Below, one piece after another: positions 46,509 through 61,134 of a DNA stretch of 64,000 nucleotides; position 1 is the first letter of the stretch; each line of letters opens with the position of its first letter. The translations under genes were made by a program, and so were the position numbers. This DNA is from Candidatus Omnitrophota bacterium (lineage in GTDB: Bacteria > Omnitrophota > Gorgyraeia > Gygaellales > Profunditerraquicolaceae), in the NCBI GenBank assembly GCA_022710715.1, contig JAKLGJ010000001.1, forward strand, positions 234,041 through 298,040, given 5' to 3'. The notes under the pieces are model-generated. The model was not told the origin of the DNA, ran no database searches, and was given only the letters and a program-made list of their open reading frames with translations.

Positions 46509-46590
46509 TGACGAGCGCCTTGACACCAGGGGTTACTTTGAGGTATACTATTACTGTAACTTCAAGTGACACTTTGAGAAAGGAGGAAGC

Positions 46591-47037
46591 TTGAGAAAAG
46601 GATTTACGCTCATTGAACTACTGGTAGTGTTGATCGTGATTGCCATTCTGGTGGTCCTGGCTTTTGTAGCCTATCAATTCATTATTGAACGTTCGCGCGG
46701 CACCGAAGCCAGAGAGGCGCTGGGGTATTTTCGCAAGATGTGCGCCGGGATTTACGACCGCGACGGCTCGGTGAGTAACTGTGACGATAAAACCTTGCAC
46801 GTAGGCAACTGGACGCTGGATCAAAGCGAAATATCCTATCCTTCGGAATGTCTGCCCAGCAATTATTTCAACTATAGCGTTTTTCTGGACGATGAGGAAA
46901 ACGGGGTAATCAGCTTTATAGCTTCCCGCTGCCGGAAAGGCGGCCGGAAACCGGACGCGACCCGCGCGGGATCGATCAGCCTTACGGTGGATTACAAGAC
47001 CAACAAAAATACCTGGACGACCAAGGGTATCTACTAA
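46591..47037 (+). CDS. Type IV pilin (prepilin, paralog 1).
   Basis: MRKG|FTLIELLVVLIVIAIL class III signal with Glu at +5. Cys pair in the C-terminal domain. Sequons NWT and NYS. Confidence 0.85.
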   Translation: MRKGFTLIELLVVLIVIAILVVLAFVAYQFIIERSRGTEAREALGYFRKMCAGIYDRDGSVSNCDDKTLHVGNWTLDQSEISYPSECLPSNYFNYSVFLDDEENGVISFIASRCRKGGRKPDATRAGSISLTVDYKTNKNTWTTKGIY

Positions 47038-47051
47038 GAAAGGAGTCACAG

Positions 47052-47501
47052 ATGAAAAAGGGGTTTACGCTTATCGAACTGATGATCGTTATCATTATCA
47101 TCGGTATACTCGCCACGGTGGGTATTATCCAGTATCAGACCGCAGTGGAGAAATCCCGCGGTTCGGAAGCCAAACAGTTCCTGGGCCATTTGCGCGGGTT
47201 ATGCGCGGCTATTTACCTGGAAACCGAGGACGCCCAGGATTGTCAGAAGGATGACGGTCGTGATTTGACTATCGGACAGACCGGCGGTATTCCCGGTCCG
47301 AAGATCACCGACTGCGAGTTGTCCAATTTTTTCGCATATGCAGTCGAAGACTGCGACCAGACTTCGTGTAAGTTCGTTGCGAGGCGTTGCGCGGTCAATA
47401 CCGGTAAAAAGCCCGGTTCCACCAAGGCTTTTGAGCTTCATTTGACTACTGATTTCGCGACGGGCAACGATACCTGGTATTCTCCTGACGGTACGTATTA
47501 A
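47052..47501 (+). CDS. Type IV pilin (prepilin, paralog 2).
   Basis: MKKG|FTLIELMIVIIIIGIL. Several Cys. Sequon NDT near the C-terminus. Confidence 0.85.
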   Translation: MKKGFTLIELMIVIIIIGILATVGIIQYQTAVEKSRGSEAKQFLGHLRGLCAAIYLETEDAQDCQKDDGRDLTIGQTGGIPGPKITDCELSNFFAYAVEDCDQTSCKFVARRCAVNTGKKPGSTKAFELHLTTDFATGNDTWYSPDGTY

Positions 47502-47905
47502 TGTATCAGCCGGATACGATGTTGACAACGCGGCGTAAAGGATTTACCCTGATCGAGCTTCTCGTTGTGCTGATCATCATCGGGATCCTGGCGACGATCT
47601 CTATCAACCAATTCATCGGTCCGCGGGAATCAGCTTTGAATAAGGAGGCCATTGCCAACCTCAAGCTGATTGCCGCGGCCGAACGAATGTACCGCATGGA
47701 AACCGGTAGTTATGTGTCTGCCGCTACCGAAACCGACCTGAACGATAAGCTCAAGCTGCTGCTGCCTGCGGTGAACCGGAAATGGCAGTATGCGGTGGAT
47801 GCTCCCACCAAGGATACTTTTCGCGCTACCGCGGTTCGCGCCGACAAGCGCCTGAATCGAACGTATTTTGTGAATGAGAGCCTTGAAGAACCTGTAAAGC
47901 AATAG
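47501..47905 (+). CDS. Type IV pilin (prepilin, paralog 3).
   Basis: RRKG|FTLIELLVVLIIIGIL. The real start may be the internal MLTTRRKG at 47519. Sequons NRT and NES near the C-terminus. Confidence 0.8.
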   Translation: MYQPDTMLTTRRKGFTLIELLVVLIIIGILATISINQFIGPRESALNKEAIANLKLIAAAERMYRMETGSYVSAATETDLNDKLKLLLPAVNRKWQYAVDAPTKDTFRATAVRADKRLNRTYFVNESLEEPVKQ

Positions 47906-47915
47906 AGGGTACGTT

Positions 47916-48296
47916 ATGCATAGAACCGGCAGCCGCGGGGTTACGATCATCGAAATTCTTGTGGCTTTATTCATCCTGGCGCTGGTCATGGCCGCATTCC
48001 TGAACGTGTTCGTCATCGGCAAAAAATTCATTTTTCACAGTCGTTCACGGGTGGTCAGCGCGGAACTGGGAAAGCATTTTTTCGAACAACCCGGGCCGCT
48101 GGACGTCAGGCAGGACACCTGGGGGACGAATTGCGTCAGCAATAACAACAACTGCGTCAATCCCGCACCCTTGACGGTGGATTCTATCGTGTATAACGGC
48201 AAGTATGAATCGTCGGCAATCAACACCCCGGATGGGACGCCGACTACTTTACGAAGAGTAGTGGTTAACGTGACCTGGAATGAATCTGATTTCTGA
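47916..48296 (+). CDS. Minor pilin / pseudopilin (prepilin-type N-terminus).
   Basis: SRG|VTIIEILVALFILAL. The C-terminus carries NVTWNES. Confidence 0.7.
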   Translation: MHRTGSRGVTIIEILVALFILALVMAAFLNVFVIGKKFIFHSRSRVVSAELGKHFFEQPGPLDVRQDTWGTNCVSNNNNCVNPAPLTVDSIVYNGKYESSAINTPDGTPTTLRRVVVNVTWNESDF

Positions 48297-48867
48297 TCGG
48301 TCTAAAGCGGTTACTCTGGTGGAACTCCTGATCGGCGTGGTGCTGCTCGGTCTTATCGTGCTGGGTCTGTCCGGTATAGAATTGTTTTGCCGCTATCATT
48401 TTGTCGCTTCGGACCGCAAGGTCAAAGTGGTCAATCAGGCGACCTACCTGCTGGAACACATGACCAAGAATATCGGCCAGGGGATCGGCACGGTCAACGA
48501 GCCCCCGGTGGATGGCACTGCGCAACCGCCTTTCGATACCTCGATCCGCGCCGTTATCGACAGCAACCAGAACGCGATCCGCGACGCCGACGATCTTACC
48601 GTTGCCTATATGTTCCGGCGGTCCACGCATGAAGTTTTTTATTATCCCGATTTCAACGGCGCCGCCGCCGGCCACGGAGAAAAGCTGGGCGCGCAGATCC
48701 GGGATTTCACGGTAAGCGTTCCGGCAAACAATATCGTGGAAGTGAATCTGACCGCCTGCTGGGACGCTTCTATCCCGGACTCCAGTTCCAAACATTGCGG
48801 TACGCCGGATAATCCCGGGGTTTCCATGCAAACCCGTATTTACCTGCCTTCAGTATCAATCAATTAA
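48280..48867 (+). CDS. Minor pilin / pseudopilin (PilW/GspJ-like).
   Basis: KA|VTLVELLIGVVLLGL prepilin-like N-terminus. Sequon NLT near the C-terminus. It overlaps the preceding minor pilin gene. Confidence 0.65.
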   Translation: MNLISDRSKAVTLVELLIGVVLLGLIVLGLSGIELFCRYHFVASDRKVKVVNQATYLLEHMTKNIGQGIGTVNEPPVDGTAQPPFDTSIRAVIDSNQNAIRDADDLTVAYMFRRSTHEVFYYPDFNGAAAGHGEKLGAQIRDFTVSVPANNIVEVNLTACWDASIPDSSSKHCGTPDNPGVSMQTRIYLPSVSIN

Positions 48868-48885
48868 AATCACGTTTGTATTCTC

Positions 48886-51483
48886 GTGCGGTTATGGTAT
48901 AATTCACCTATGAAAAAATACATCCTCTGGGCCGGAAAACGGCTCGCGCGGGTAAAACAGTACGTTCCCCGGGTCAGGAAATACGCTTTCTGGATCAGCC
49001 TGGGGGCAGTTCTGGGGTTTAATCTCGCCGTTCGCTCCTATCCCGTTAATTTTCCGCAGTATGCCACTCTCGCCAAAGAACAGGCGGAAGAAGAAATCTA
49101 CCGTAATGCTTCGGCCGCAGTAAGAAAAGAGTTCCCCGCGCTGTCGGAAGCCTCGCGCCGGACCGTATTCGGTGAAATGGTAAAACAATACCATAAAACC
49201 AACGCAAAGGAATTTCAACAGCGGGTACGGGAAAAATACCAGCAACTGCGCGATTCCGTGCAGGATAAAACCGGCCAGACGTACCTGATGGAACTGGATT
49301 GCTGGCACTGGGCGCGTTATGTGGAGAATGTGTACCGTCTCGGCCATCCCGGCGACCGGGTCGTCGGCGGCAAACAGCAGGATATGCTGATGACTGCCCC
49401 CTGGGGGTCGGATATCGGATGGACCACCTGCGTTTTTTATCTTTCCGCTTTCCTTTTTCGTCTCGCTTCATTCGCGGTGCATCTGCCGTTGACTACTTTT
49501 CTTTTCTACCTGCCGCTGGTTTTCATTACCGTTTTCATCCTGGTCTTATTCTGGTTGTGCCGGCGTTTTTACGGCACGCTTGCCGCTATCACTACCAGTT
49601 TAGTGGTGGGCATGGGGCCGATCTTCGTGCCCAGAAGCTGCGCGGGATGGTTCGATATGGATATCCTGCAGCTTCTCTTACCGCTGGCGTGCGTATTCGG
49701 TTATCTGATGGCGTACGAAAGCGGCTCTTCCCGAAGCCTGTGGCTCTGGGCTGCGGTTTCTTCATTCCTGCTGGGGATTTTCTCCTGGATGTGGCCGTAC
49801 TGGTGGTTTATCGGTTTGATCATCCTGGTTTATGAAGGGTATACCGTCCTGGACCTGTTCTCCGAACAGTTGCAGTATAAGGAGGATATGACGGAGGATA
49901 TGCGCCGTCACGGGTTGATGTTGCTGGCATTCTCGGTTTTTACCGTTGGTTGGGTACTGGTTTTTTCCGGGCCGCAGCCGTTCAGCCAGTTGTTTACGCA
50001 ATTCAAGGATTCCCTGCTGCTTAATGACCCTTTGCGGGCGAATATCTGGCCGAATGTGTATTCAACCGTCGGAGAACTGCGCCGTCCGGATCTGCGCGAG
50101 ATCATCAAATCGGTGGGAGGGCTATGGGTTTTTCTCCCCAGCCTGATCGCGATGTTAGTGCTGATTTTGCACAACAGGCGGTTCAGCGGATTAAAGAGGG
50201 AAATGCTTTTCTTGATGTTTACCTGGTTTATGGTCATGCTGCTGGCTTCTTTCAAAGGGGTGAGGCTGACGATGTTCCTGCTCATTCCTCTGGGTGTCAT
50301 GCTGGGGTGGGGGGCGCAGGAGCTGCTGGGCGCCGTTCGCAGGAAAAAGAAGTTCGCAGCGCGGGGTACGGCAATTGTCGCGGGCGTCATCGTTGTATTC
50401 TGGGCATCCCTCATCTATCAGGGGAATATGGCGGGATTGCGTTGCCGGCCGCTCATGGATGACGATTGGTACGATATCCTGAATACGATCAAAGAGAATA
50501 CGCCCCGGGAGGCGATCATCAACTCCTGGTGGGATTACGGGGACTGGTTCAAATCGGTTGCCCGGCGGCGGGTTATTTTTGACGGCCACAGCCAGAATAT
50601 TCCGCAGGCTTACTGGATGGCCAGGGTATTTCTGTCGGATTCCGAAGAAAAGGCGCTGCGCATACTGCGCATGCTTAATAACAGCGGCAACCGCGTGTTT
50701 GAGATCGTGGATAGTTATCTGCACGATCCTTTTGAATCGATCCGGCTGGTGGAGCAGGCGCTTGAGCTGGATAAAGCTAAAGCCAGGCAGCTGCTGGCGG
50801 GCGCGCTCCCGGCTGAAGCGGTCGAAAAGGTCAGCGGATATCTTTTTAATAAACCGCCGCCGGCTTATTTTGTGGTCGAATATTCACTGATGGATAAGAT
50901 CGATCCTATTTCTTTTATCGGCAACTGGGATTTTTCGAAGGTGTATCTGGTCAAGAACTTCGATAAGCAGAGCAGGGAGACGATCATCGGCCGTTTGACC
51001 CGGTGGGGCATGCCGGCGGAGAAAGCCGAGGCGCTGTATCAGGATTTCAGCCTGTTGCCGTCGGATCAGCAGCGCGATTCCTGGGTTTCCCGGCGATTGC
51101 GGTTTTATACGTCGTGGGTTCCCGGGCGGGTAAAGAAGGGGCTGGTGTTGTTCGAAAACGGCCTGGTCTATACTCCTTCGGAAAACGCGGTATTCGGTTA
51201 CAACGCCTATCAATCCGGGTTCGCCACTCCTAAAAACCTTTTTCTCTGGGAGGAGAATCAACTGGTGGAAACACCGTTCGCGCAGCCGGATTCGCCGACT
51301 TCGATCCTCATCATGCGCAAAGCCGATGAGTATACGTCATTCGAGTTCGATCCGGAACTGGCGCGCAGCTGCTTTACCCGCCTGTACCTGTTCAACGCCG
51401 CGGGCATGAAGCATTTCAAACCTTTTGCCGAACATGTGAAAGACGGCCGGAATATCCGGGTGTTCGAGATTATCTGGGATTGA
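48886..51483 (+). CDS. STT3/AglB/PglB-family oligosaccharyltransferase (GT-C), about 865 aa.
   Basis: Polytopic N-terminal membrane domain with an acidic first-loop motif (ELDCWHWARY). The family hallmark WWDYGDWF is followed by a DG element (INSWWDYGDWFKSVARRRVIFDGHSQN), and a C-terminal periplasmic domain follows. Size fits archaeal-type AglB. The start may instead be the MKKYILW at 48910. Confidence 0.7.
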   Translation: MRLWYNSPMKKYILWAGKRLARVKQYVPRVRKYAFWISLGAVLGFNLAVRSYPVNFPQYATLAKEQAEEEIYRNASAAVRKEFPALSEASRRTVFGEMVKQYHKTNAKEFQQRVREKYQQLRDSVQDKTGQTYLMELDCWHWARYVENVYRLGHPGDRVVGGKQQDMLMTAPWGSDIGWTTCVFYLSAFLFRLASFAVHLPLTTFLFYLPLVFITVFILVLFWLCRRFYGTLAAITTSLVVGMGPIFVPRSCAGWFDMDILQLLLPLACVFGYLMAYESGSSRSLWLWAAVSSFLLGIFSWMWPYWWFIGLIILVYEGYTVLDLFSEQLQYKEDMTEDMRRHGLMLLAFSVFTVGWVLVFSGPQPFSQLFTQFKDSLLLNDPLRANIWPNVYSTVGELRRPDLREIIKSVGGLWVFLPSLIAMLVLILHNRRFSGLKREMLFLMFTWFMVMLLASFKGVRLTMFLLIPLGVMLGWGAQELLGAVRRKKKFAARGTAIVAGVIVVFWASLIYQGNMAGLRCRPLMDDDWYDILNTIKENTPREAIINSWWDYGDWFKSVARRRVIFDGHSQNIPQAYWMARVFLSDSEEKALRILRMLNNSGNRVFEIVDSYLHDPFESIRLVEQALELDKAKARQLLAGALPAEAVEKVSGYLFNKPPPAYFVVEYSLMDKIDPISFIGNWDFSKVYLVKNFDKQSRETIIGRLTRWGMPAEKAEALYQDFSLLPSDQQRDSWVSRRLRFYTSWVPGRVKKGLVLFENGLVYTPSENAVFGYNAYQSGFATPKNLFLWEENQLVETPFAQPDSPTSILIMRKADEYTSFEFDPELARSCFTRLYLFNAAGMKHFKPFAEHVKDGRNIRVFEIIWD

Positions 51484-51489
51484 CAGGCT

Positions 51490-52656
51490 ATGACAGAGAT
51501 CGACGTTTCCGTAGTGATGCCCTGTTTGAACGAAGAAAAGGGCATTCGCATCTGTATAGACAAGATCGCCAGGGTATTTGCCGCGCACGGCGTGTCGGGC
51601 GAGATCATTGTAGCCGATAACGGCTCCACGGACCGTTCCCGGCAGATAGCTCAAGCCGCCGGCGCCCGGGTAGTGGAAGAGCCTGTGCCGGGATATGGTT
51701 CGGCGTATCTGCGGGGTTTGTCCGAGGCGCGCGGGAAGTACATTATCATCGCCGACAGCGATAACACCTATGATTTTAACGATATCCCCCGTTTTCTCGA
51801 CGCTTTACGCGCCGGGCGCGATTTCGTGATGGGATCCCGTTTCAAAGGCACGATACACAAAGGCGCGATGCCCTGGGCGCACCGTTATATCGGCAATCCC
51901 ATTCTTTCCTGGATGACCCGGATGTTCTTCCATACCCGCCTTTCCGATATCCATTGCGGCATGCGGGCGTTCACCCGCCAGGCTTACCAGAAGATGAAGC
52001 TGCATACGCTGGGCATGGAATTTGCCACGGAAATGGTGGTTTCGGCGATTACCAATCAGCTCGACATCCATGAGATCCCGATCAATTATTATCCTCGTCA
52101 GGGAGAATCCAAGCTGAAATCGTTCTCGGACGCCTGGCGGCATATCCGTTTCATGCTGATCTACTGTCCGGTCTGGTTATATCTGATCCCGGGATTGATC
52201 GGTTTCTTCGCGGGCATGGCATTGCTTTTCATTTTGCTTAAAGGCCCGGTGTTGTTTTTAGGGCATTACTGGGATGTGCATCTGGTGGTGCTCTCCAGTC
52301 TGATATCGATTGTTTCCTATCAACTGGTGCATATGGGACTGTACGCCCATACGTTCGCGGTGGGGCAGGGGCTGTTGCGTCAGGACCGGATCATCCAGCT
52401 GCTTCAGCGCCACTTTAATTTAGAGAAATGGCTGCTTATCGGTTTCGTTTTCTTCGCCGCCGGCATAGCCATCAACCTGCTCATTTTCTGGGAGTGGTTT
52501 ACCCAGAATTTCGGGCCGCTGTACCGGATACGCGAGTCGGTGCTGGCGATGACCCTGCTGGTCATCGGTTTGCAGACGATGTTTTCGTCGTTTTTCTTGA
52601 GCCTGCTGTTCCTGAAGAAGAGGGAATCCGCCAATGGCAAAAATACTGATCATTAA
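51490..52656 (+). CDS. GT2 polyprenol-phosphate sugar synthase (DPM1/GtrB-like) with a C-terminal multi-TM domain.
   Basis: VSVVMPCLNEE...ADNGSTD...IIADSD DxD-type GT2 N-terminal domain, followed by four or more TM helices. Confidence 0.75.
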   Translation: MTEIDVSVVMPCLNEEKGIRICIDKIARVFAAHGVSGEIIVADNGSTDRSRQIAQAAGARVVEEPVPGYGSAYLRGLSEARGKYIIIADSDNTYDFNDIPRFLDALRAGRDFVMGSRFKGTIHKGAMPWAHRYIGNPILSWMTRMFFHTRLSDIHCGMRAFTRQAYQKMKLHTLGMEFATEMVVSAITNQLDIHEIPINYYPRQGESKLKSFSDAWRHIRFMLIYCPVWLYLIPGLIGFFAGMALLFILLKGPVLFLGHYWDVHLVVLSSLISIVSYQLVHMGLYAHTFAVGQGLLRQDRIIQLLQRHFNLEKWLLIGFVFFAAGIAINLLIFWEWFTQNFGPLYRIRESVLAMTLLVIGLQTMFSSFFLSLLFLKKRESANGKNTDH

Positions 52657-53563
52657 GCTCGGCTATTCCGAAACGCTGGACAAGGAGATTTCCACCACTA
52701 CATCGCTGGGCGACGTGGTGCGCACGACGGTGCTGCTTAATTTTTTCAAAGACGACGAAGTCAGCTGGCTGGTTGACGATAAGGCCAGGGTATTGCTTGA
52801 GCGTAATCCGTTGATCAAACGCGTGCTGGTGTATAACCTGGAAACGGTTCTCCAGTTGCAGCGGGAACGTTTTGACGTGGTGATCAACCTGGAGAAGGTT
52901 CCGGGGATATGCGCGTTAGCCGATTCCATCAACGCCTGGAAGCGTTACGGCTTCCGTTTCGATGAATATAACGGCATTGCCCAGAGTTATGACGGCGCGG
53001 AAAAAGTGCTGGCGTTATCCTTGAGCCTGAACAAGAAAAAGAAGAACAAGATGTTCTGGCAACAGGCGCTGGTGGAGATGATCGGCCGTCAGTGGGAAGG
53101 TCAGGAATACCGCGTTTCCTATAAACCCAGGGTTAAGACCACCTACGATGTGGGGTTGAATTGGCTGGTGGGGAACAAATGGAACAACAAGGCCTGGCCG
53201 AAAGAAAACTGGAAGAAGCTGGAAGAGTTGCTTCGGGATACGTATGCGGTGAGCTGGCAGGCGGGATTCGACGATTTGTATGAGTACATGGACTGGATCA
53301 GCTCAAATCGTCTGATCGTGACCAATGACAGCCTGGGTATGCATCTGGGGATAGCTTTAAAAAAGAAAGTCGTGGCTTTGTTCGGACCCACGTCTTCGCA
53401 GGAAGTTTATCTGTACGGCCGCGGGGAGATCGTGTGTCCCCAGTCCGCGTATCGCTGTGTTCCTTGCCTGAAACAGGAATGTTTCCAGCCGACCTCGTGT
53501 ATGCATTTTATCTCTCCGGATGCGGTAGCCCGGGCCGTGGAAAGAATCCTCAAACATGGATAA
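52634..53563 (+). CDS. Glycosyltransferase family 9 (heptosyltransferase-like).
   Basis: The C-terminal motif LIVTNDSLGMHLGIALKKKVVALFGPT is the GT9 RfaF/RfaC-type signature. Confidence 0.7.
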   Translation: MAKILIIKLGYSETLDKEISTTTSLGDVVRTTVLLNFFKDDEVSWLVDDKARVLLERNPLIKRVLVYNLETVLQLQRERFDVVINLEKVPGICALADSINAWKRYGFRFDEYNGIAQSYDGAEKVLALSLSLNKKKKNKMFWQQALVEMIGRQWEGQEYRVSYKPRVKTTYDVGLNWLVGNKWNNKAWPKENWKKLEELLRDTYAVSWQAGFDDLYEYMDWISSNRLIVTNDSLGMHLGIALKKKVVALFGPTSSQEVYLYGRGEIVCPQSAYRCVPCLKQECFQPTSCMHFISPDAVARAVERILKHG

Positions 53564-54620
53564 GTTCAGGATCGATTCGCATAAGCTGCTTTATCATGTT
53601 GAGCGGGTTGCCGGATGGCTGCGCCGCGGGGATACCTATCCGGTGTATATTGAGATTTCTCCCAGCGGGGCCTGTAATCACCGCTGCCGGTTTTGCGCGC
53701 TGGACTATCTGAAGTATAAGCCGACGTTGCTGGAAACCGCGGCCACGCTGCGGTTCCTCAAAGAGATAGCCGGTCTGGGGGTCAAGAGCGTGATGTTCGC
53801 CGGGGAAGGGGAACCGTTTCTCCACCCTGATTGCGCGCGGATGATCGCGGCGGCCAAAAAGAGCGGGCTGGATGTGGCGGCGACCACCAACGCTGCGCTG
53901 TTGACCCCGGCACTGCTGGAAAAGGCGCTTCCATACTTGAGCTGGTTGCGGGTGAGCGTCAATGCCGGCGTTGCCAGGACCTATAGCCGGCTGCACCGTT
54001 GCCGGGAAACGGATTTCGCCAGAGTGCTCGCGGTGATCCGCGCGGCCAGCGCTTTGCGGAAAAAGAAAAAGTACGGCTGTGCTATCGGCGGTCAGATCCT
54101 GTTATTCCGGGAGAATATGAATGAAGTCGGCCTGCTGGCAAAAAAGCTCGCCGCTGCCGGAGCGGATTATCTGATCGTCAAACCGTATTCGCAGCATCCC
54201 ATGAGCGTCAACCGGATGCATTCGCCGCTGCAGGAGAAGGTGTACGCGCAACTGGCGGTTGCGGCGCAACGTTATTCTTCGCAAACATTCCAGGTCATCG
54301 TTCGCCGCCGGACCATGGAGGACTCTTCGGTCGCCAAATCCTATAGCCGCTGCCTGGGGCTGCCGTTCTGGGCGTATGTGAATTCCTGCGGCGATATCTA
54401 CGGCTGCAGCGCTTTTCTGGGCGATAAGCGGTTTCTCTACGGTAACATCTACCGGCAGACATTCAAGGCTATCTGGAACGGCGACAGGCGCAGGCGTCAT
54501 CTGCGTCTGATGTCCGGAGAGTGGGATATACGCAGGTGCCGCGCGGTCTGCCGTCTGGATAAGATAAATCAGTATCTCTGGGACCTGAAAAATCCGCCGG
54601 AACACGTTAACTTTATCTGA
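53556..54620 (+). CDS. Radical SAM protein with a SPASM/twitch-like C-terminal Cys cluster.
   Basis: CNHRCRFC (CxxxCxxC). GGEP-like FAGEGEPFL. C-terminal cysteines NSCGDIYGCSAF...RRCRAVCRLD. Confidence 0.75.
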   Translation: MDKFRIDSHKLLYHVERVAGWLRRGDTYPVYIEISPSGACNHRCRFCALDYLKYKPTLLETAATLRFLKEIAGLGVKSVMFAGEGEPFLHPDCARMIAAAKKSGLDVAATTNAALLTPALLEKALPYLSWLRVSVNAGVARTYSRLHRCRETDFARVLAVIRAASALRKKKKYGCAIGGQILLFRENMNEVGLLAKKLAAAGADYLIVKPYSQHPMSVNRMHSPLQEKVYAQLAVAAQRYSSQTFQVIVRRRTMEDSSVAKSYSRCLGLPFWAYVNSCGDIYGCSAFLGDKRFLYGNIYRQTFKAIWNGDRRRRHLRLMSGEWDIRRCRAVCRLDKINQYLWDLKNPPEHVNFI

Positions 54621-54624
54621 AAAG

Positions 54625-55596
54625 ATGACCCGATTGCCTTTTCCCGTTACTCTCGCCAGGAAGATCTATACCAGCATGGTGCGTATCCGCAGCTTCGAAG
54701 AGCGTATCTGCCGGTTATACAGCCAGCAGGAGATGCGTTGCCCGGTGCATTTGTCCACCGGACAGGAAGCCATTGCCGCGGGCACGCTCATACAGCTGCG
54801 TCGGCAGGATTACGTGGTCAGCACTCATCGCAACCACGGGCATCTCATCGCTAAAGGGGCGGCGCTGAAATCCATGTTTGCGGAAATGTACGGCAGGCAG
54901 ACCGGTTGTTCGCGGGGCAAAGGCGGGTCGATGCACATGTCCTTTCCGCAGGCAGGGATCGCGGGTACCAGCGCTATCGTTGCCGGCGGCCTGCCCATTG
55001 CCGTCGGGCTGGCCTGGGGCTCGGTGCTGCAGAAGAACCGTCGCATCAGCGCGGTTTTCTTCGGCGATGGAGCGGTTGACGAAGGGACATTCTATGAAAG
55101 CCTGAATTTTGCCAGCCTGAAGAAACTTCCGGTCGTGTTCGTCTGCGAGAATAATTTTTACGCCACCAACTCTCCCCAGAAAGCCAGGCAAACCAATCCG
55201 CGTATCCATGAAATCGCCCGGTTTTTCAGGATCCCCGGGACGTGTATCGACGGCAATGACGTGGTCGCCGTGTACACCGCCGCCGCCGGGGCGATTGAGC
55301 GTTGCCGTAAGGGCGCCGGTCCCAGCCTGATCGAAGCCAGGACGTTCCGCTGGAAAACGCATGTGGGTGTGGAATCGGACCTGGAAAAAGGGTTTCGCCG
55401 GCAGGAAGAAGTTGCGCTTTGGTTCCGGCGCTGCCCGGTCAAACGGTTTGAGCGGTATCTGCTTAGCCGGGGAATGGTCAGCCAGCAATGGATAGACACG
55501 GTCAGGGAATCGGTTGACAAAGAGATCTCGCGGGCAGTCGAGTTTGCCCGGAACAGTCCGTATCCCCGGCCGGAAACGGAGAGTACCGATGTATAG
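54625..55596 (+). CDS. Thiamine-diphosphate-dependent dehydrogenase E1 component, alpha subunit (PDH/acetoin-DH E1-alpha family).
   Basis: The TPP-binding motif GDGAVDEGTFYESLNFA and the E1-alpha fold are present. No E2 or E3 is nearby. Confidence 0.8.
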   Translation: MTRLPFPVTLARKIYTSMVRIRSFEERICRLYSQQEMRCPVHLSTGQEAIAAGTLIQLRRQDYVVSTHRNHGHLIAKGAALKSMFAEMYGRQTGCSRGKGGSMHMSFPQAGIAGTSAIVAGGLPIAVGLAWGSVLQKNRRISAVFFGDGAVDEGTFYESLNFASLKKLPVVFVCENNFYATNSPQKARQTNPRIHEIARFFRIPGTCIDGNDVVAVYTAAAGAIERCRKGAGPSLIEARTFRWKTHVGVESDLEKGFRRQEEVALWFRRCPVKRFERYLLSRGMVSQQWIDTVRESVDKEISRAVEFARNSPYPRPETESTDV

Positions 55597-55614
55597 TAAT
55601 GCAAGGATAGTCTG

Positions 55615-56682
55615 ATGTGGGATAAAGCGCCCGAACAGTCATCGTCCGGCCGGAATCAAAAGCCGCGGGCCCGCGGCCGGGGCCGTCTGCTTTCTTATCG
55701 CGAAGCGATCCGCGAAGGTCTGCTCCAGGCAATGGAGCAGGACAGGCGGGTTTTTCTGTTCGGCGAAGGGATCGACGATCCGGCGGGAGTATTCGGGACC
55801 ACTGCGGGCTTGCAGCAGCGTTTCGGCGCCGGGCGCGTGTTCGATACGCCCATCTGCGAGAATACCCTGACCGGCATCGCCATCGGCAGCAGCCTGGCGG
55901 GTTTGCGGCCGGTGCTCATACATATGCGCACGGATTTTCTGCTGATGTCGATGGATCAACTGGCTAATCACGCCGCAAAGTGGAAGTATATGTTCGGAGG
56001 GGCGACGCCGTTGCCGATGGTCGTGCGGGCGGTAATCGGCGGAGGCTGGGGGTCGGCCGCGCAGCATTCCCAGCCGTTACAGGCGATTTTCGCCCATATT
56101 CCCGGGTTGAAAGTGGTTATGCCGGCCTGCGCATATGACGCCAAAGGGTTACTCTTGTCCGGCATTGCCGAGCAATCGCCGGTCCTTTTTATCGACCATC
56201 GCTGGTTATACGACGAGAAAGACGCCGTTCCCGCAGCTGCGTACCGGATTCCGCTGGGCAAGGCGCATGTGGTCAGGAAGGGAAGCCGGTTGTCTTTGAT
56301 CTGCGTTTCTTTTATGCGTAAACTCGCTTTGCAAGCGGCAGCGGAGCTGGCGAAAGAAGGCATAGATGTGGAAGTGATCGATGTGCGCACGATCAAGCCT
56401 CTGGATATGGTTACCATTAACCGTTCTGTGGGGAAAACCGGCAGAGCGCTGGTCCTTGATTTCGGCTATTCTTTCTGCGGGATCACCGCGGAGATCGCGG
56501 CGCGGATCAGCCGGGATGTGTTCGGCAGCCTGAAAGCTCCGGTATATCGGATAGGGTTGCCTGATACGCCTACGCCGGCCAGTCCGGTTTTAGAAAAATG
56601 TTTTTATCCCGGTCCTGACGCCATTACCGATACTATCCGCCGGATTATGCGCGGGCAAAAAAGAGTGGGCAAGCACAGATGA
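55615..56682 (+). CDS. Thiamine-diphosphate-dependent dehydrogenase E1 component, beta subunit (transketolase-like).
   Basis: FLFGEGIDDPAGVFGTT...FDTPICENTLTGIAIGSSLAGLRPV is E1-beta/transketolase Pyr-domain sequence. A C-terminal domain follows. Confidence 0.8.
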   Translation: MWDKAPEQSSSGRNQKPRARGRGRLLSYREAIREGLLQAMEQDRRVFLFGEGIDDPAGVFGTTAGLQQRFGAGRVFDTPICENTLTGIAIGSSLAGLRPVLIHMRTDFLLMSMDQLANHAAKWKYMFGGATPLPMVVRAVIGGGWGSAAQHSQPLQAIFAHIPGLKVVMPACAYDAKGLLLSGIAEQSPVLFIDHRWLYDEKDAVPAAAYRIPLGKAHVVRKGSRLSLICVSFMRKLALQAAAELAKEGIDVEVIDVRTIKPLDMVTINRSVGKTGRALVLDFGYSFCGITAEIAARISRDVFGSLKAPVYRIGLPDTPTPASPVLEKCFYPGPDAITDTIRRIMRGQKRVGKHR

Positions 56683-57419
56683 GCGCCAGCGAATTCCAGG
56701 TCAGCGTGGTTATGCCGGGATTGAATGAGCAGGAGAGCGTTTCCGGCGTGGTGGAGAGCACGGTAACCGCATTCAAAGAGCTGGGTATACGCGGCGAGCT
56801 GATAGTGATCGACGATGGCAGCACCGACCGGACAGGCGAACTTGTTCGACAGAAGATGCGCGAGTATCCCGGAGTGGTCCGGTTGATACGCCATGAAGTT
56901 CCTCACGGCATAGGAGGCTCGTTCTGGGACGGGGTGGCGCATGCCGCGGGCCGGGCAGTGGTTCTGTTGCCCGCAGACAACGAGATCGATCCCCGTCAGA
57001 TCCTGCGTTACCTCGACCTGATCGAGCACGTGGATATGGTGGTCCCGTACGTGGTCAATGCCGGGGTCAGGCCTTTCAGCCGGAGGCTGACGTCGTGGCT
57101 GTTTACCAGGATAATCAACGCTACTTTTTTCACGTCATTTCAATACACCAACGGAACGGTTATATACCGTCGGGAGAGATTGCTCTCTCTTGACTACCGG
57201 GTCAACAATTTCTTTTTTCAGACCGACATCCTGATCCGTCTGGCCAGAAAAGGCTGTCTCTACGCGCAGGTCCCGTATGCGCTCACCCCCAGGAAGGGCG
57301 GGGCATCGAAAGCCATTTCCTTACGATCTCTTGCGGCCGTCATCCGGGCCTATCTGCGATTGCTGGTGAATATCTACTTGCCTAAACATGAATCCCATTC
57401 CCATACCCGCCCGGTATAA
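56679..57419 (+). CDS. GT2 glycosyltransferase (DPM1-like, soluble/peripheral).
   Basis: VSVVMPGLNEQE...VIDDGSTDRTG...LPADNEID motifs. Confidence 0.75.
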   Translation: MSASEFQVSVVMPGLNEQESVSGVVESTVTAFKELGIRGELIVIDDGSTDRTGELVRQKMREYPGVVRLIRHEVPHGIGGSFWDGVAHAAGRAVVLLPADNEIDPRQILRYLDLIEHVDMVVPYVVNAGVRPFSRRLTSWLFTRIINATFFTSFQYTNGTVIYRRERLLSLDYRVNNFFFQTDILIRLARKGCLYAQVPYALTPRKGGASKAISLRSLAAVIRAYLRLLVNIYLPKHESHSHTRPV

Positions 57420-58281
57420 CTATATCGGCATATTCCTTACTTTTGACTGCAATCTGCGCTGCAGTTACTGCATCAACAATTTCGAGCGCAATCTTACAAA
57501 ACGGTTTCCTCTGGACGGCAAAGCCTGGGTGGCTGCCCTTAACCGGATACAGTCAAGGCCCGACCTGCCGGTGACCCTGCAGGGCGGAGAGCCCACGATG
57601 CATCCGGACTGTATTTTTATCATCAATAACCTCAAACCCGACCTGCATATCGACGTGCTTACCAACCTGCAGTTCGATATTCCCGCGTTCATCAAGCGGG
57701 TCGATCCGCAGCGGATCAAACGCGACGCGCCGTATGCTTCGATCCGGGTCAGTTATCATCCCGAGCAGATGAAGCTGCCCGATACCATCGAAAGGACGCT
57801 GGCGTTGCAGCGGGCGGGTTTCAGCGTGGGCATCTGGTCGGTTTTGCATCCGCGTTACGAAGAGCACATCCGTCAGGCGCAGAAAGAATGCCTGTCTCTG
57901 GGGATCGATTTCCGCTTCAAGGATTTTCTGGGCGAATATAACGGCAAGCTGTACGGAAGCTATAAGTATGCCGGCGCCTGCAGCCATAAGCCGCTGAAGC
58001 AGGTTTCCTGCCGGACCAGCGAGCTCCTGGTAGATCCGGCAGGACAGGTGTATCGCTGTCACCATGATGTCTATGAACGCTCTCATCCCGTCGGGTCTTT
58101 GCTGGATGAGGGATTCCTGATCGCGGACCGCTTCAGCCCTTGTTCGTATTTCGGCTGTTGCAATCCCTGCGACGTAAAAATAAAAACGAACCGTTTTCAG
58201 ACGTTCGGCCACACCTCGGTGGATATACGGTTTGAAGATCAAGCGGAGCAGCTCGATGAAAGGAGAAAGCTCGATGAGTAA
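57388..58281 (+). CDS. Radical SAM protein with a Cys-rich (SPASM-like) C-terminus.
   Basis: FDCNLRCSYC (CxxxCxxC). LQGGEPTMHPD. C-terminal cysteines CSHKP...CRTS...CHHD...CSYFGCCNPC. Confidence 0.75.
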   Translation: MNPIPIPARYNYIGIFLTFDCNLRCSYCINNFERNLTKRFPLDGKAWVAALNRIQSRPDLPVTLQGGEPTMHPDCIFIINNLKPDLHIDVLTNLQFDIPAFIKRVDPQRIKRDAPYASIRVSYHPEQMKLPDTIERTLALQRAGFSVGIWSVLHPRYEEHIRQAQKECLSLGIDFRFKDFLGEYNGKLYGSYKYAGACSHKPLKQVSCRTSELLVDPAGQVYRCHHDVYERSHPVGSLLDEGFLIADRFSPCSYFGCCNPCDVKIKTNRFQTFGHTSVDIRFEDQAEQLDERRKLDE

Positions 58282-59827
58282 AATGCGCAGTGCGCACGCG
58301 GTTATGGTGTTGAGTCTGGTTTTTCTCTTTCTGGCGTTCGCGCGGTTACAGGACCCGGAGCTCGATCATGGCGATGAATATGCCGATGCCGATGTGCTGC
58401 TTGCCGGCCAGAATTTCGTAAAACTGGGTTTTATCCAGACGCGCCTCCTGCCGGTATTCGATGTGCAGGAACCGGCGTATACGCATTATCCGCCCCTGCC
58501 CGAGATCACCAACGGAGTGTTGCAGCATATCTGGCCGGGTAATCTGGCGTTGTTTCGCCTGTTTGCCGTGATCTTCGCTTTCCTGAATATGCTCTTCTGG
58601 TTCTTTTTTACCCGGCGTATTTCCGGATCGGTGATCTTTGCTCTGATCGCCGGATTGTTCTACATCACCAATCCGTATTTCCTTTACGGGATGGATTCTT
58701 TGCAGCAGCTTTCTTATTCGGACTGTCTGCGGTCGTTGATCCTGCTGGTATTCGTGAGCATGCCGCAGGCGGGCCGGGGGAAGAAAGGGTGGCTGGCGCT
58801 GTTATGGGCACTGCTTTTTATCCAGTCCCTTGTCGGATTCGAGTACATTGTTTATCTCGCCCTGTTCATGGCTATCCTGGGCCGGGCGCTCAAGGAATTC
58901 CGTAAAAACGTTACCGCGCGGGAATGGATGATTCTGGCCGGCGCTTCGGTCGCCGGGGTCGGGCTTCATTTTCTGCAGAATGTCTGGTATTTCGGCAGCA
59001 TCGGTACGGCGCTGGCTGATTTCGCGGGGCGGGCCGTGTATCGTTCTGTTTCCCTGCCGCTGGATGGCCCGGCGGGTTTCAATCTTTTTAACTGGTTCCG
59101 GCTGGTCATTCTGCGGAATTTCTTCCTGGTGTTCATGTTCGGATTTTCCTTGCTGGCGGTGGGCGGTTACTGCGGGTACCTGTTATATAAGGGGCTGAAT
59201 ACTTCTGTTCGCCGGAAGATCCGCGACGTATTCAAACTTGCGGGAATATTCGGTATCTGCGGGATAACCTGGTATGTGATTTTTCCTTCGCATTCGTATG
59301 CCCACACCTATGTCCGGTTTCTCACCCGGCATCTGGTTCCCATGGCTTCGATCGGCTTCGCCGGTTTTTTCTACCTTTTGTTCGAATACATCAATGCCCG
59401 GGTGCAGCGCGCAACTATTCTTAAGGTGATCGGCGGGGCATTCGTAGCCGCGATTTGCCTGATCGGCCTTGCCCAGAGTGAGCTGCCGGTTACGGCGGAC
59501 CGGTTGCTGCGGGTCGAACAATTCAAAATTTTCAAAGAAAGTCTGCTGGAATTGAAAAGCGCGAGCGCAGCGGATGCCGTGATAGGCGTCAATTATTATC
59601 GCTATCCGTTCATCCGTTATTATACCGACCGGAGCGTAAAGATCGTTTTCGACAAGCAAACGCTGGAGAGCCTGCCGCGCCTGCCGGATTATTTTATCTT
59701 CATATTCTACGATAATGACGGCGCGCGCGCGTTCTTTGAAACGCTCAAACAGCAGTATCAACCTAAATTGCAGTGTAAATCGATGATCTTTCCCAGCGTC
59801 ATTATGGAGCGCAAGCAGCATGAATGA
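58274..59827 (+). CDS. Polytopic membrane protein, putative GT-C-fold glycosyltransferase (ArnT/PMT-like architecture).
   Basis: At least ten predicted TM helices. The first loop carries an acidic motif (DPELDHGDEYADAD) as in GT-C enzymes. A C-terminal soluble domain follows. The track ORF starts at 58232. Confidence 0.4.
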   Translation: MSKMRSAHAVMVLSLVFLFLAFARLQDPELDHGDEYADADVLLAGQNFVKLGFIQTRLLPVFDVQEPAYTHYPPLPEITNGVLQHIWPGNLALFRLFAVIFAFLNMLFWFFFTRRISGSVIFALIAGLFYITNPYFLYGMDSLQQLSYSDCLRSLILLVFVSMPQAGRGKKGWLALLWALLFIQSLVGFEYIVYLALFMAILGRALKEFRKNVTAREWMILAGASVAGVGLHFLQNVWYFGSIGTALADFAGRAVYRSVSLPLDGPAGFNLFNWFRLVILRNFFLVFMFGFSLLAVGGYCGYLLYKGLNTSVRRKIRDVFKLAGIFGICGITWYVIFPSHSYAHTYVRFLTRHLVPMASIGFAGFFYLLFEYINARVQRATILKVIGGAFVAAICLIGLAQSELPVTADRLLRVEQFKIFKESLLELKSASAADAVIGVNYYRYPFIRYYTDRSVKIVFDKQTLESLPRLPDYFIFIFYDNDGARAFFETLKQQYQPKLQCKSMIFPSVIMERKQHE

Positions 59828-60773
59828 TCCGGTCAGTATCATCATTGCCGTCAAGAACGGCGCGGCAACGCTGGTTCCCTGCCTGGATTCGGTGCTGCGG
59901 CTGGAGTATCCCGCGTTCGAGGTGATCGTTGTCGACGACGGGTCGACTGATCGCACGCCGGAGATACTCCGGGGTTACGCGCAGAGGATCAAGGTGATTA
60001 CGTTCGAGAAAAGCGCCGGGCCTTCGGCGGCGCGCAATCAGGCTGCGGCGCAAGCCAGGGGCGATTTTGTGGCTTTTACCGACGCGGATTGCATCGTGGC
60101 CCCGGATTGGCTTACTCGGCTGGTGGAGGCTTTGCGCGAGAAGCCGGAAGCGGTCTCTTGCGGCGGGTTACAGCTGGTTCCTGAACAAGCCGCGCTTTTC
60201 GAAAAACAGGTATTCGCCTTCATGTCCCGGGCCGGGATCATTACCGATTACGTTAAACCGGCGCGCGGCCGGGCGGCGTATCCGGTGCGCCATAACCCTT
60301 CGTGCAATTCTCTGTACCGCAGGCAGGTTTTTCTCGACGCCGGCGGCTTTCAGGAAGGTTTGTGGCCGGGGGAGGATGTAGAGCTGGATTATCGTTTGTG
60401 CCGCCGGGGGCTACTATTGTTATTCAATCCTCTGGCAGTGGTATACCATCATCGTCCCGCGGCGCTGCCGGCTTTTCGGCGGATGATGCGGCGTTACGGT
60501 TGGGCTCAAGCGGTTGTAGTCAAACACTACGGTCCGTTCCGCAGCATACATTTTTTGCCGGCAGTTTGCCTGACCGCGCTGTTGGGTTTTATAGCTTTGT
60601 TGTTCTGGGATCGGCTTGCGGCGCTCGGCGCGCTTCTGCTGACCGTGGCCGCGCTTGGCCTGTATCTGCGCGATGCGGCGACCTTCCGGCTGGTTTTGTG
60701 GGCATTGATTTCATGGCATGCCGGGTTCGTGCAGGGTTTGTTTTCGCAAAAAGCATTAGACAAAAAACCCTGA
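59820..60773 (+). CDS. GT2 glycosyltransferase with a C-terminal TM domain.
   Basis: VSIIIAVKNGA...VIVVDDGSTDRT...FTDADC motifs. Two or three C-terminal TM helices. Confidence 0.75.
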   Translation: MNDPVSIIIAVKNGAATLVPCLDSVLRLEYPAFEVIVVDDGSTDRTPEILRGYAQRIKVITFEKSAGPSAARNQAAAQARGDFVAFTDADCIVAPDWLTRLVEALREKPEAVSCGGLQLVPEQAALFEKQVFAFMSRAGIITDYVKPARGRAAYPVRHNPSCNSLYRRQVFLDAGGFQEGLWPGEDVELDYRLCRRGLLLLFNPLAVVYHHRPAALPAFRRMMRRYGWAQAVVVKHYGPFRSIHFLPAVCLTALLGFIALLFWDRLAALGALLLTVAALGLYLRDAATFRLVLWALISWHAGFVQGLFSQKALDKKP

Positions 60774-60988: not shown

Positions 60989-61070
60989 AGATTCCTCCCG
61001 GTCGCATCCGCGGCCCGGGATGAAAAGTTCTCTCTATAGATAGTTATAAAACTTTTCAGGGGCTGTAGCT
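60989..61070 (+). repeat. Direct repeat copy 2 (82 bp), comprising the promoter region plus the first 12 nt of tRNA-Ala.
   Basis: 81 of 82 nt match copy 1. It contains -35-like ATGAAA and -10 TATAAA about 8 nt upstream of the tRNA 5' end. Confidence 0.9.
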
Positions 61071-61134
61071 CAGTTGGGAGAGCACCTCGTTCGCAACGAG
61101 GGGGTCAGGGGTTCGACTCCCCTCAGCTCCACCA
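61059..61134 (+). tRNA. tRNA-Ala (anticodon CGC).
   Basis: The cloverleaf can be drawn by hand. The acceptor stem GGGGCUG/CAGCUCC has the G3:U70 alanine identity pair. Anticodon loop UUCGCAA. T-loop GGTTCGACTCC. The 3' CCA is encoded. Confidence 0.9.

Follow-up and report, generated by a model that had tools for sequence, protein, structure and literature searches.

The 64,000-nucleotide stretch of DNA analyzed here (hereafter the window) comes from a metagenome-assembled genome (MAG) of a Candidatus Omnitrophota bacterium, obtained from anaerobic-digester metagenomes, and contains between positions 53556 and 58281 five genes that all lie on the + strand and abut or overlap one another (Table 1). 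They encode a radical S-adenosylmethionine (SAM) enzyme (rSAM354), the alpha and beta subunits of a thiamine pyrophosphate (TPP)-dependent E1 component of the 2-oxo-acid dehydrogenase type, a family 2 glycosyltransferase (GT2_246), and a second radical-SAM enzyme (rSAM297). We propose, giving the idea slightly less than an even chance, that these genes are the core of a conserved cassette for sugar tailoring, in which a predicted lipoyl-independent TPP carboligase would work together with radical-SAM chemistry to make a surface sugar modified by a two-carbon (C2) unit. Recurrence of the same cassette in many uncultured anaerobes makes it most likely that its product is an unusual surface sugar and that its role is not in central metabolism. 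The proposal draws on what was observed: the genes present, their catalytic motifs, how widely the cassette is conserved, the lack of genes for the E2 and E3 components nearby, and the sugar-pathway neighbors. Since nearly all known carriers of the cassette are MAGs, the case for it rests on comparative genomics.

Both E1 subunits are complete. E1-alpha matches the E1_dh profile over its full length, and E1-beta carries both transketolase-like domains (Transket_pyr and Transketolase_C). The TPP motif (G147-D-G...E175-N-N) is made up of GDGAVDEGTFYESLNF at residues 147-162 of E1-alpha and ENN at 175-177. By their domains, TPP motif, and conserved residues, the subunits belong to the heterotetramer-type 2-oxo-acid dehydrogenase E1 superfamily. 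E1-alpha also contains a GKGGSMH motif that exactly matches human pyruvate dehydrogenase E1-alpha, and in alignments its His246 falls opposite the loop histidine of the human (YRYHGH) and Thermus proteins. Glu82 and His151 of E1-beta correspond to the DTPLAES Glu and to His128 of the Geobacillus chain, respectively. We take the counterparts of alpha-His246, beta-Glu82, and beta-His151 to have catalytic roles, and with these residues in place the pair looks catalytically competent. The retention of GKGGSMH, together with a best family match to pyruvate dehydrogenase E1-alpha, points to a small substrate such as pyruvate, which the pair probably uses.

The context of the pair was studied by a scan of one genome per species, from which we took the 80 closest E1-alpha loci from other species (44 to 58% identity). 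E1-beta adjoins E1-alpha in 77 of these, and 46 encode an rSAM354 ortholog at a distance of up to 3 kb from E1-alpha. Orthologs of GT2_246 (at least 40% identity) are present in 26 loci, with more distant GT2s taking the same position in others, while a divergent GT9-like protein, encoded immediately upstream of rSAM354 in the window, has orthologs in 25 and rSAM297 in 22; all six cassette genes occur in 20. The carriers span at least eight phyla and include Omnitrophota, Thermodesulfobacteriota ("Deltaproteobacteria"), Nitrospirota, Planctomycetota, Elusimicrobiota, Geobacteraceae, and Nitrospinota. In a neighbor-joining tree of E1-alpha, the sequences linked to radical-SAM genes fall together, and those from loci devoid of such genes (type D below) branch earlier.

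By clustering all flanking open reading frames and annotating the recurrent ones, we distinguished four layouts. Type A (Nitrospirota, Geobacteraceae, and others) runs from a GSU2086-family gene through an adenylyltransferase, HldE-like and GmhA-like genes, a radical-SAM gene, E1-alpha/beta, and a GT2 to a second radical-SAM gene of the SPASM type and a weakly PMT_2-like membrane protein. Type B (Omnitrophota and Planctomycetia) combines a B12-binding radical-SAM gene, a DUF2079 gene, a GT9, a radical-SAM gene, E1-alpha/beta, a GT2, a second radical-SAM gene, two genes for 170-aa proteins, and rSAM297. In type C (Thermodesulfobacteriota), a radical-SAM gene, E1-alpha/beta, a GT2, a B12-binding radical-SAM gene, a GT9, and rSAM297 are followed by a pilin gene. 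Type D (Cyanobacteria, Planctomycetes, Patescibacteria, and others) has no radical-SAM gene and places E1-alpha/beta among genes for a PglF-like dehydratase, a short-chain dehydrogenase/reductase (SDR), DegT, GFO/IDH/MocA, a hexapeptide acyltransferase, a methyltransferase, and Bac_transf; these are ordinary polysaccharide loci. Across the loci, recurrent neighbors comprise an HldE-like kinase/nucleotidyltransferase, a GmhA-like isomerase, a GSU2086-family protein, a GmhB-like phosphatase, a glucose-1-phosphate cytidylyltransferase, SDR epimerases/dehydratases, DegT aminotransferases, a PglF-like 4,6-dehydratase, Bac_transf, and PMT_2, DUF2079, and YfhO membrane proteins. The GSU2086 family is likewise part of the hldE-gmhA heptose operon of Geobacter (PMC5585712). 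Because these recurrent neighbors and layouts belong to sugar and polysaccharide loci, the whole E1 clade is a sugar-pathway clade rather than one of central metabolism. The nearest relative of the window (L087; 72% identity) keeps the order STT3, GT2, GT9, radical-SAM, E1-alpha/beta, GT2, radical-SAM, and membrane protein, and adds an HpnJ-like B12-binding radical-SAM gene.

The earlier note had described a complete E1 pair with no E2 or E3 in its vicinity, which holds, and had stated that its reading would fall if the pair grouped with housekeeping acetoin or pyruvate dehydrogenases and an E2/E3 elsewhere accounted for it; the evidence from the window and the related loci does not point that way. 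Across the window, no 2-oxoacid_dh, lipoyl, or Pyr_redox Pfam call was made among the called genes, and a motif scan of all six reading frames recovered no DHRxxDG (E2), redox-disulfide (E3), or lipoyl motif; by motif scan and cluster annotation, E2/E3 motifs are found in 0 of the 80 related loci. Neither subunit reaches the curated equivalog or subfamily scores of pyruvate dehydrogenase E1: E1-alpha scores 321.6 bits with TIGR03182 (cut-off 393.85), and E1-beta scores 318.2 bits with NF006667 (cut-off 321) and 302.6 with NF008854 (cut-off 454). The complete domain architecture, the conservation of every catalytic residue checked, and scores only modestly below the family cut-offs would nevertheless fit an ordinary E1 of a pyruvate or acetoin dehydrogenase that has its E2 and E3 genes at another site and lies in a glycosylation cluster by coincidence. 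We find this scarcely credible, as the pair is fixed beside a radical-SAM gene in 46 of the 80 loci and lies elsewhere among sugar-pathway genes, and as E1-alpha is about 32% identical to the human and Thermus proteins versus 44 to 72% within its own clade. The carriers, moreover, are mostly strict-anaerobe lineages, which are not generally known to have pyruvate dehydrogenase complexes. Synteny and the lack of E2/E3 motifs in the window and the 80 related loci led us to reject a housekeeping pyruvate dehydrogenase.

The gene for rSAM354 lies directly 5' of that for E1-alpha. Its product has the CNHRCRFC motif at residues 40-47, and seven cysteines are invariant both in 33 orthologs from the loci and in a 36-sequence alignment: C40, C44, and C47 of the CX3CX2C motif, and C266, C284, C328, and C332 toward the C terminus. 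Thus, although it passes the Pfam SPASM threshold (30.4 versus 21.5 bits), it has four rather than seven conserved C-terminal cysteines, which suggests a single auxiliary cluster and a twitch-like rather than a full SPASM enzyme; the spacing of these cysteines presumably resembles that of BtrN. Its best solved sequence relatives in the PDB are BlsE and DesII, and a Foldseek search with an AlphaFold2 (AF2) model (mean predicted local distance difference test [pLDDT] score of 88.7) returned DesII first (TM score of 0.71), then SuiB, SkfB, and BlsE. The family is uniform and unnamed (354 to 356 aa; more than 2,600 homologs), and its members' labels give no specific functional name, a few automated ones reading MoaA/GTP 3',8-cyclase.

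The earlier note had seen two SPASM enzymes flanking the E1 pair, with the motifs CNHRCRFC and CNLRCSYC and Cys-rich C termini. The motifs and the termini are there, and rSAM354 does sit directly upstream of the pair; the gene for GT2_246, which had been overlooked, separates E1-beta from rSAM297. The SPASM label is borne out for rSAM354 as far as the Pfam threshold goes, but its four invariant C-terminal cysteines are twitch-like, and rSAM297, with five invariant and two near-invariant cysteines, has no Pfam SPASM match. Both enzymes match SpeY, a twitch dehydrogenase, weakly in sequence.

The distribution of enzymes that form keto-sugars with NAD bears on the role of rSAM354. Such an enzyme lies within 4 to 5 kb in 12 of 17 E1 loci without a radical-SAM gene, as against 6 of 30 radical-SAM-adjacent ones (Fisher p = 0.0013), and this rarity at the latter hints that the radical-SAM enzyme might itself generate or rework the sugar carbonyl.

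The sugar-phosphate genes of the related loci raise another possibility, namely, that the E1 pair builds or lengthens the sugar backbone in the manner of DXS or transketolase, joining a C2 unit from a 2-oxo acid to an aldose phosphate or sugar aldehyde to give a higher-carbon or deoxy-ketose that is then activated and transferred. Many of these loci place the radical-SAM and E1 genes straight after a GmhA-like isomerase, an HldE-like PfkB kinase/nucleotidyltransferase, and a phosphatase, whose substrates are sugar phosphates and not nucleoside diphosphate (NDP)-keto-sugars, and those enzymes fall so far under the heptose equivalog cut-offs (e.g., 156 versus 521 bits) that they may act on a non-standard sugar. 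There is also homology among E1, DXS, and transketolase, and weak DXS and transketolase matches are seen. We nonetheless regard this route as unlikely, given that the E1 loci lacking radical-SAM genes are clusters of the PglF/DegT/Bac_transf type, where the obvious electrophile is an NDP-4-keto-6-deoxy sugar, and that the sugar-phosphate enzymes have no representative in the window. Further, a 1-deoxy-ketose made from pyruvate could not be isomerized by a GmhA-type enzyme.

It could also be asked whether the pair decarboxylates a sugar-derived 2-keto acid, such as a ulosonic, Kdo-like one, in place of pyruvate, thereby shortening or reworking the sugar. E1 enzymes act on 2-oxo acids generally, BlsE, to which rSAM354 is related, is itself a sugar-acid decarboxylase, and GT9-family enzymes normally act beside Kdo in lipopolysaccharide (LPS) cores. 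With GKGGSMH identical to that of human pyruvate dehydrogenase E1-alpha, that same family as the best match, and no ulosonic-acid synthase seen in the loci, we consider this highly improbable.

The second radical-SAM enzyme, rSAM297, has its CNLRCSYC motif at residues 21-28. In 20 orthologs from the loci and in a 34-sequence alignment, C21, C25, C28, C208, C224, C252, C258, and C261 are invariant, and C168 and C198 are mostly conserved. It is better conserved than rSAM354 (59 to 77% identity) and likewise has more than 2,600 homologs. The closest fold to its AF2 model (pLDDT of 89.0) is the SPASM enzyme anSME (TM score of ~0.5; 15% identity), after which come SuiB, DesII, and SpeY, all of them remote. 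In other genomes it is paired with the GT9-like gene, which in turn is nearly always accompanied by rSAM297. The product of the GT9-like gene has a heptosyltransferase fold matched by Glyco_transf_9 in its C-terminal part only, and has weak matches to GT9 enzymes in the PDB. This protein contains a cysteine cluster (C93 and C275-x2-C278-x4-C283-x5-C289) kept in 20 to 22 of 22 orthologs, which looks like a metal or Fe-S site; to our knowledge, such a site is not expected in LPS heptosyltransferases.

These folds suggest that one or both radical-SAM enzymes might act on protein: rSAM297 and the GT9-like protein could modify pilins by cross-linking, oxidation, or epimerization, with the E1 pair serving a glycan separately. 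In keeping with this, anSME is a protein-modifying dehydrogenase and is followed by SuiB, while SuiB and SkfB rank high for rSAM354 as well; in Thermodesulfobacteriota a pilin gene adjoins the GT9-rSAM297 pair, in another Omnitrophota locus (L006) a pilin gene is one gene away from rSAM297, and the window pilins contain Cys pairs. Set against these points, the fold matches of rSAM297 are weak, most cassette loci are without a nearby pilin or small-peptide gene, and rSAM354 is tied to E1-alpha/beta rather than to any gene for a protein substrate, so that we judge protein modification to be improbable. The earlier note had named maturases of ribosomally synthesized and posttranslationally modified peptides (RiPPs), with a precursor peptide nearby, as a finding that would refute its reading, and our findings speak against them: neither enzyme has an N-terminal peptide-recognition (RRE) domain by profile matches or models, the radical-SAM cores starting at about residue 30 (rSAM354) and 12 (rSAM297) and leaving no space for one; the abutting or overlapping genes leave no space for a precursor-peptide gene; neither enzyme reaches a cut-off of any RiPP family; and the closest relatives of rSAM354 are the sugar-nucleotide enzymes DesII and BlsE. 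A RiPP maturase was rejected on architecture and gene spacing.

Returning to the sugar-tailoring proposal, the glycosyltransferases around the core offer a possible route to the cell surface. The catalytic domain of GT2_246 has ArnC (E = 6e-12), Pyrococcus dolichyl-phosphate mannose synthase (DPMS), and GtrB as its closest solved relatives, and the protein, only 246 aa long, shows no obvious membrane-spanning helix on inspection of its sequence; it is predicted to be an ArnC/DPMS-type, polyprenyl-phosphate glycosyltransferase-like enzyme. Downstream of rSAM297 lies a polytopic membrane protein of 531 aa, with no significant Pfam match even at E = 0.1. A related locus (L033) encodes a homolog of it at the equivalent position (phmmer E = 2.5e-17); this homolog clusters with a protein from a further locus (L026) that has a sub-threshold PMT_2 match, and we accordingly regard it as probably a GT-C-type, ArnT/PMT_2-like transferase. 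GT-C-like membrane proteins (with sub-threshold PMT_2, DUF2079, YfhO-like, or STT3 matches) stand beside the cassette in nearly all locus types. Upstream, the window encodes an STT3/PglB-type oligosaccharyltransferase, found at the same position in L087, which does not reach the equivalog models for PglB and archaeal AglB; we know of little work on bacterial N-oligosaccharyltransferases beyond Campylobacterota and Desulfovibrio. The GT2 encoded directly after it is of the AglJ/dolichyl-phosphate-hexose-synthase type and scores 171 bits with the AglJ model TIGR04182, under the cut-off.

The cassette is part of a run of 15 + strand genes (46591-60773) that overlap or are separated by gaps of at most 18 nucleotides, in the order five pilin-like genes, STT3, GT2, GT9-like, rSAM354, E1-alpha, E1-beta, GT2_246, rSAM297, the 531-aa membrane protein, and GT2. 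Four of the five proteins at the head of the run are pilins, and the fifth, of 195 aa, has a pilin-like hydrophobic N terminus. Such packing from pilins to cassette looks like that of a single operon, and the only strong promoter-like site, directly ahead of the run, is its probable start. A pilin gene occurs within 10 kb in 9 of about 47 loci with the cassette, as against 0 of 33 E1 loci that lack it (Fisher p = 0.009, with kinship ignored), and the window, L006, and L028, all three from Omnitrophota, share the order of pilins, large membrane protein, and cassette. The pilins of the window would be the probable acceptors of the glycan. The suggestion in the earlier note of an unusual sugar in a pilin glycan thus gains from the packing and the proximity to pilins; its C2 chemistry, substrate, and acceptor continue to be a matter of inference.

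Taking these findings together, we envisage the following scheme; its donor (pyruvate), acceptor sugar, step order, lipid carrier, and pilin target are all inferred. The stand-alone E1-alpha/beta would decarboxylate pyruvate to hydroxyethyl-TPP and add the C2 unit to a sugar carbonyl with no acetylation of lipoyl, in an acyloin-type carboligation as proposed for AviB1/B2, Plm8/9, and EvdU5/S3. The carbonyl might come from rSAM354 or be reworked by it, in a radical reaction independent of NAD and oxygen (dehydrogenation, dehydration, or decarboxylation of a sugar). The ArnC-like GT2 could then load the sugar on polyprenyl phosphate, and GT-C-type enzymes (the 531-aa protein, STT3, or both) would transfer it outside the cytoplasm, the acceptors here probably being the pilins at the head of the run. 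The GT9-like protein and rSAM297 might make up a second module, separable from the first, for adding a sugar or modifying it further.

Several points weigh against this proposal. The E1 pair keeps every checked residue needed by a lipoyl-dependent E1, so that its sequence is compatible with an E2 elsewhere in the genome. The window encodes no enzyme of sugar-nucleotide synthesis and none that forms keto-sugars with NAD. The likeness of rSAM354 to DesII and BlsE is remote (15 to 20% identity), and the RiPP maturases SuiB and SkfB score nearly as high. Both statistics given above, on radical-SAM versus keto-sugar enzymes and on cassette versus pilins, ignore the kinship of the genomes. Nor are N-X-S/T sequons of the pilins enriched beyond composition: this signal (1.06 versus 0.22 per 100 aa) was discarded on composition-preserving shuffles (P = 0.16), and the only D/E-X-N-X-S/T sequon among the pilin-like genes, EVNLT at residue 154 of the 195-aa protein, is singly of no statistical meaning. 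The cassette clade is known from sequence alone, and the precedents for E1 enzymes in antibiotic pathways are themselves genetic or hypothesized, with direct biochemistry sparse there too.

A broader scenario, possible but somewhat doubtful, is that of an anaerobic pathway shared by multiple phyla, in which a twitch radical-SAM enzyme would take the place of NAD-dependent oxidation in creating the sugar carbonyl, for a lipoyl-independent E1-type TPP enzyme to C-acylate or extend. The C-branched or chain-extended product would be carried on polyprenyl phosphate and, in Omnitrophota, moved to type IV pilins by STT3 or another GT-C enzyme.

Table 1. Positions of the cassette and of other features in the 64-kb window
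Feature	Position	Strand	Details
831-aa protein	33624-36119	+	No Pfam match
Pilus ATPase	43548-45257	+	Carries MshEN domain
Best sigma-70-like promoter match	46520..46549	+	TTGACA-18-TATACT, 11/12; just 5' of first pilin gene
Five pilin-like genes	46591..48867	+	148/149/134/126/195 aa; N_methyl motif matches, GFTLIEL-type N termini
STT3/PglB-type oligosaccharyltransferase (GT-C)	48886..51483	+	PF02516 STT3 82.8 bits; STT3-PglB_core; WWDYG at residue 548
GT2 with C-terminal membrane helices, AglJ/dolichyl-phosphate-hexose-synthase type	51490..52656	+	Glycos_transf_2 99.4 bits; GT2_TM_C
GT9-like protein (heptosyltransferase fold), divergent	52634..53563	+	Glyco_transf_9 56.4 bits, C-terminal part only; weak PDB GT9 matches
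rSAM354	53556-54620	+	354 aa; Radical_SAM 65.9 bits, SPASM 30.4 bits
E1-alpha	54625-55596	+	323 aa; E1_dh 249.6 bits, profile positions 2-300 of 300
E1-beta	55615-56682	+	355 aa; Transket_pyr 108.7 bits, Transketolase_C 122.1 bits
GT2_246	56679-57419	+	246 aa; Glycos_transf_2 66.7 bits
rSAM297	57388-58281	+	297 aa; Radical_SAM 32.2 bits
Polytopic membrane protein, probably GT-C type	58232..59827	+	531 aa; ~8 hydrophobic segments; alternative starts 58256 or 58274 by other gene callers
GT2, last gene of run	59820..60773	+	317 aa; Glycos_transf_2 140 bits; kept in L087
tRNA-Ala	61059-61134		
Giant HEAT-repeat protein	~61396 to past 64000	+	1861 aa in source contig

The cassette of the window is a minimal version; the HldE-like, GmhA-like, and other sugar-nucleotide genes of the related loci are not in the window. 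For the two radical-SAM enzymes, both E1 subunits, the GT9-like protein, and the GT2s, no NCBIfam equivalog reaches its cut-off. Among the additional genes of the related loci, HpnJ/BchE-like B12-binding radical-SAM enzymes stand beside the cassette in most cases and are absent from the window. The one in L087 (11163-12593) matches HpnJ over its full length with 355.7 bits, and a similar enzyme is encoded in L028 (4512-5972). HpnJ is linked to the ring contraction of lipid-linked glucosamine, which hints at lipid-linked sugars as possible substrates in some steps of the cassette. In L028 (13906-14921) and six other type B loci, the stretch between the second SPASM enzyme and rSAM297 encodes two conserved proteins of about 170 aa that match no family and have no counterpart in the window. 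A copper-type P-type ATPase with YHS and HMA domains is found next to the radical-SAM gene in L010 (5909-8698, - strand), L011, L013, L017, and L025, and a YHS-ArsP permease is found there in L051 (15857-17023). This arrangement is probably a matter of lineage synteny, but it recurs in two phyla.

The first 38 kb of the window (1-38 kb) hold housekeeping genes, with an 831-aa protein between uvrA and an ExbB/ExbD pair. They are followed by a set resembling type IV pilus or type II secretion genes (PilM/N, a secretin, an MshEN-type ATPase, and PilC). In MSHA-type systems the MshEN domain binds cyclic di-GMP, and its presence in the pilus ATPase would suggest, by analogy, second-messenger control of the pilus encoded in the window. 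An Rfam scan of the window recovered only a tRNA-Ala gene, with no TPP or SAM riboswitch. Soon after this tRNA gene begins a gene for a giant HEAT-repeat protein; according to a 2026 preprint, pilus or secretion genes often flank the giant proteins of Omnitrophota.

If the proposal is true, radical-SAM chemistry would be paired with TPP carboligation in carbohydrate biosynthesis, a combination for which our literature searches found no description. Orphan E1 pairs would then extend from a few actinomycete antibiotic pathways to the surfaces of Omnitrophota, Thermodesulfobacteriota, Nitrospirota, Planctomycetota, and Elusimicrobiota, and thousands of database entries labeled "pyruvate dehydrogenase E1" or "radical SAM protein" would gain a testable function. 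By the same token, metabolic reconstructions that assign a pyruvate dehydrogenase to anaerobes may be in error. Omnitrophota are regarded as nanobacteria that depend on hosts and rely on pili, and an unusual pilin glycan could bear on their attachment.

Full-text literature searches for this gene combination returned no description of the cassette, only the precedents from antibiotic sugars and the Geobacter heptose operon. Closest in composition are the E1-like alpha/beta pairs AviB1/AviB2 (eurekanate of avilamycin), Plm8/Plm9 (paulomycose), and EvdU5/EvdS3 (everninomicin), which, like that of the window, lie in a sugar cluster without E2 or E3. The Plm8/9 and AviB1/B2-type pairs are credited with attaching a C2 branch from pyruvate to an NDP-keto-sugar (PMC4802897; PMC10338323), and the role of EvdU5/S3 is "hypothesized" (PMC10338323). 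All of these belong to actinomycete secondary metabolism and use NDP-4-keto sugars made by NAD-dependent SDR enzymes, whereas the pair in the window is fixed beside a twitch-like radical-SAM enzyme in a surface- or protein-glycosylation operon of uncultured anaerobes, with no SDR in the window and no dehydratase in the cluster. The biochemically characterized case, in which TPP chemistry joins a pyruvate-derived C2 branch to the NDP-4-keto-sugar precursor for a surface polysaccharide, is YerE of yersiniose A (cited in PMC4802897 and PMC10338323), but this is a single-chain flavoprotein of the acetolactate-synthase type with no radical-SAM partner.

The sugar radical-SAM enzymes DesII, BlsE, SpeY, and BtrN supply the parallel on the other side of the cassette, DesII and BlsE being the best solved relatives of rSAM354 in sequence and fold, at the low identity given above. 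For the downstream steps, GT2_246 and the GT-C-like proteins resemble the logic of the Arn pathway, in which ArnC makes a polyprenyl-phosphate sugar that the GT-C enzyme ArnT transfers, and of the similar CsbB/YfhO and GtrB systems; the differences are that GT2_246 shows no obvious membrane helix and that modification before transfer would be by radical-SAM and TPP rather than NAD, pyridoxal phosphate, or formyl chemistry. The position of an STT3 with WWDYG directly after the pilins, and of a large membrane protein after the pilins in two other Omnitrophota loci, recalls PglB N-glycosylation and pilin glycosylation loci; unlike pgl loci, the window has no pgl-type bacillosamine genes, and pilin glycosylation here is predicted from the genes. 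In Pseudomonas, the corresponding arrangement for pilin glycosylation is pilA-tfpO or pilA-tfpW. Seen beside these systems, the cassette would be an extension of the known idea of C2 branching of sugars by E1-like enzymes, to which it adds a fixed radical-SAM partner and a cell-surface or pilin context.

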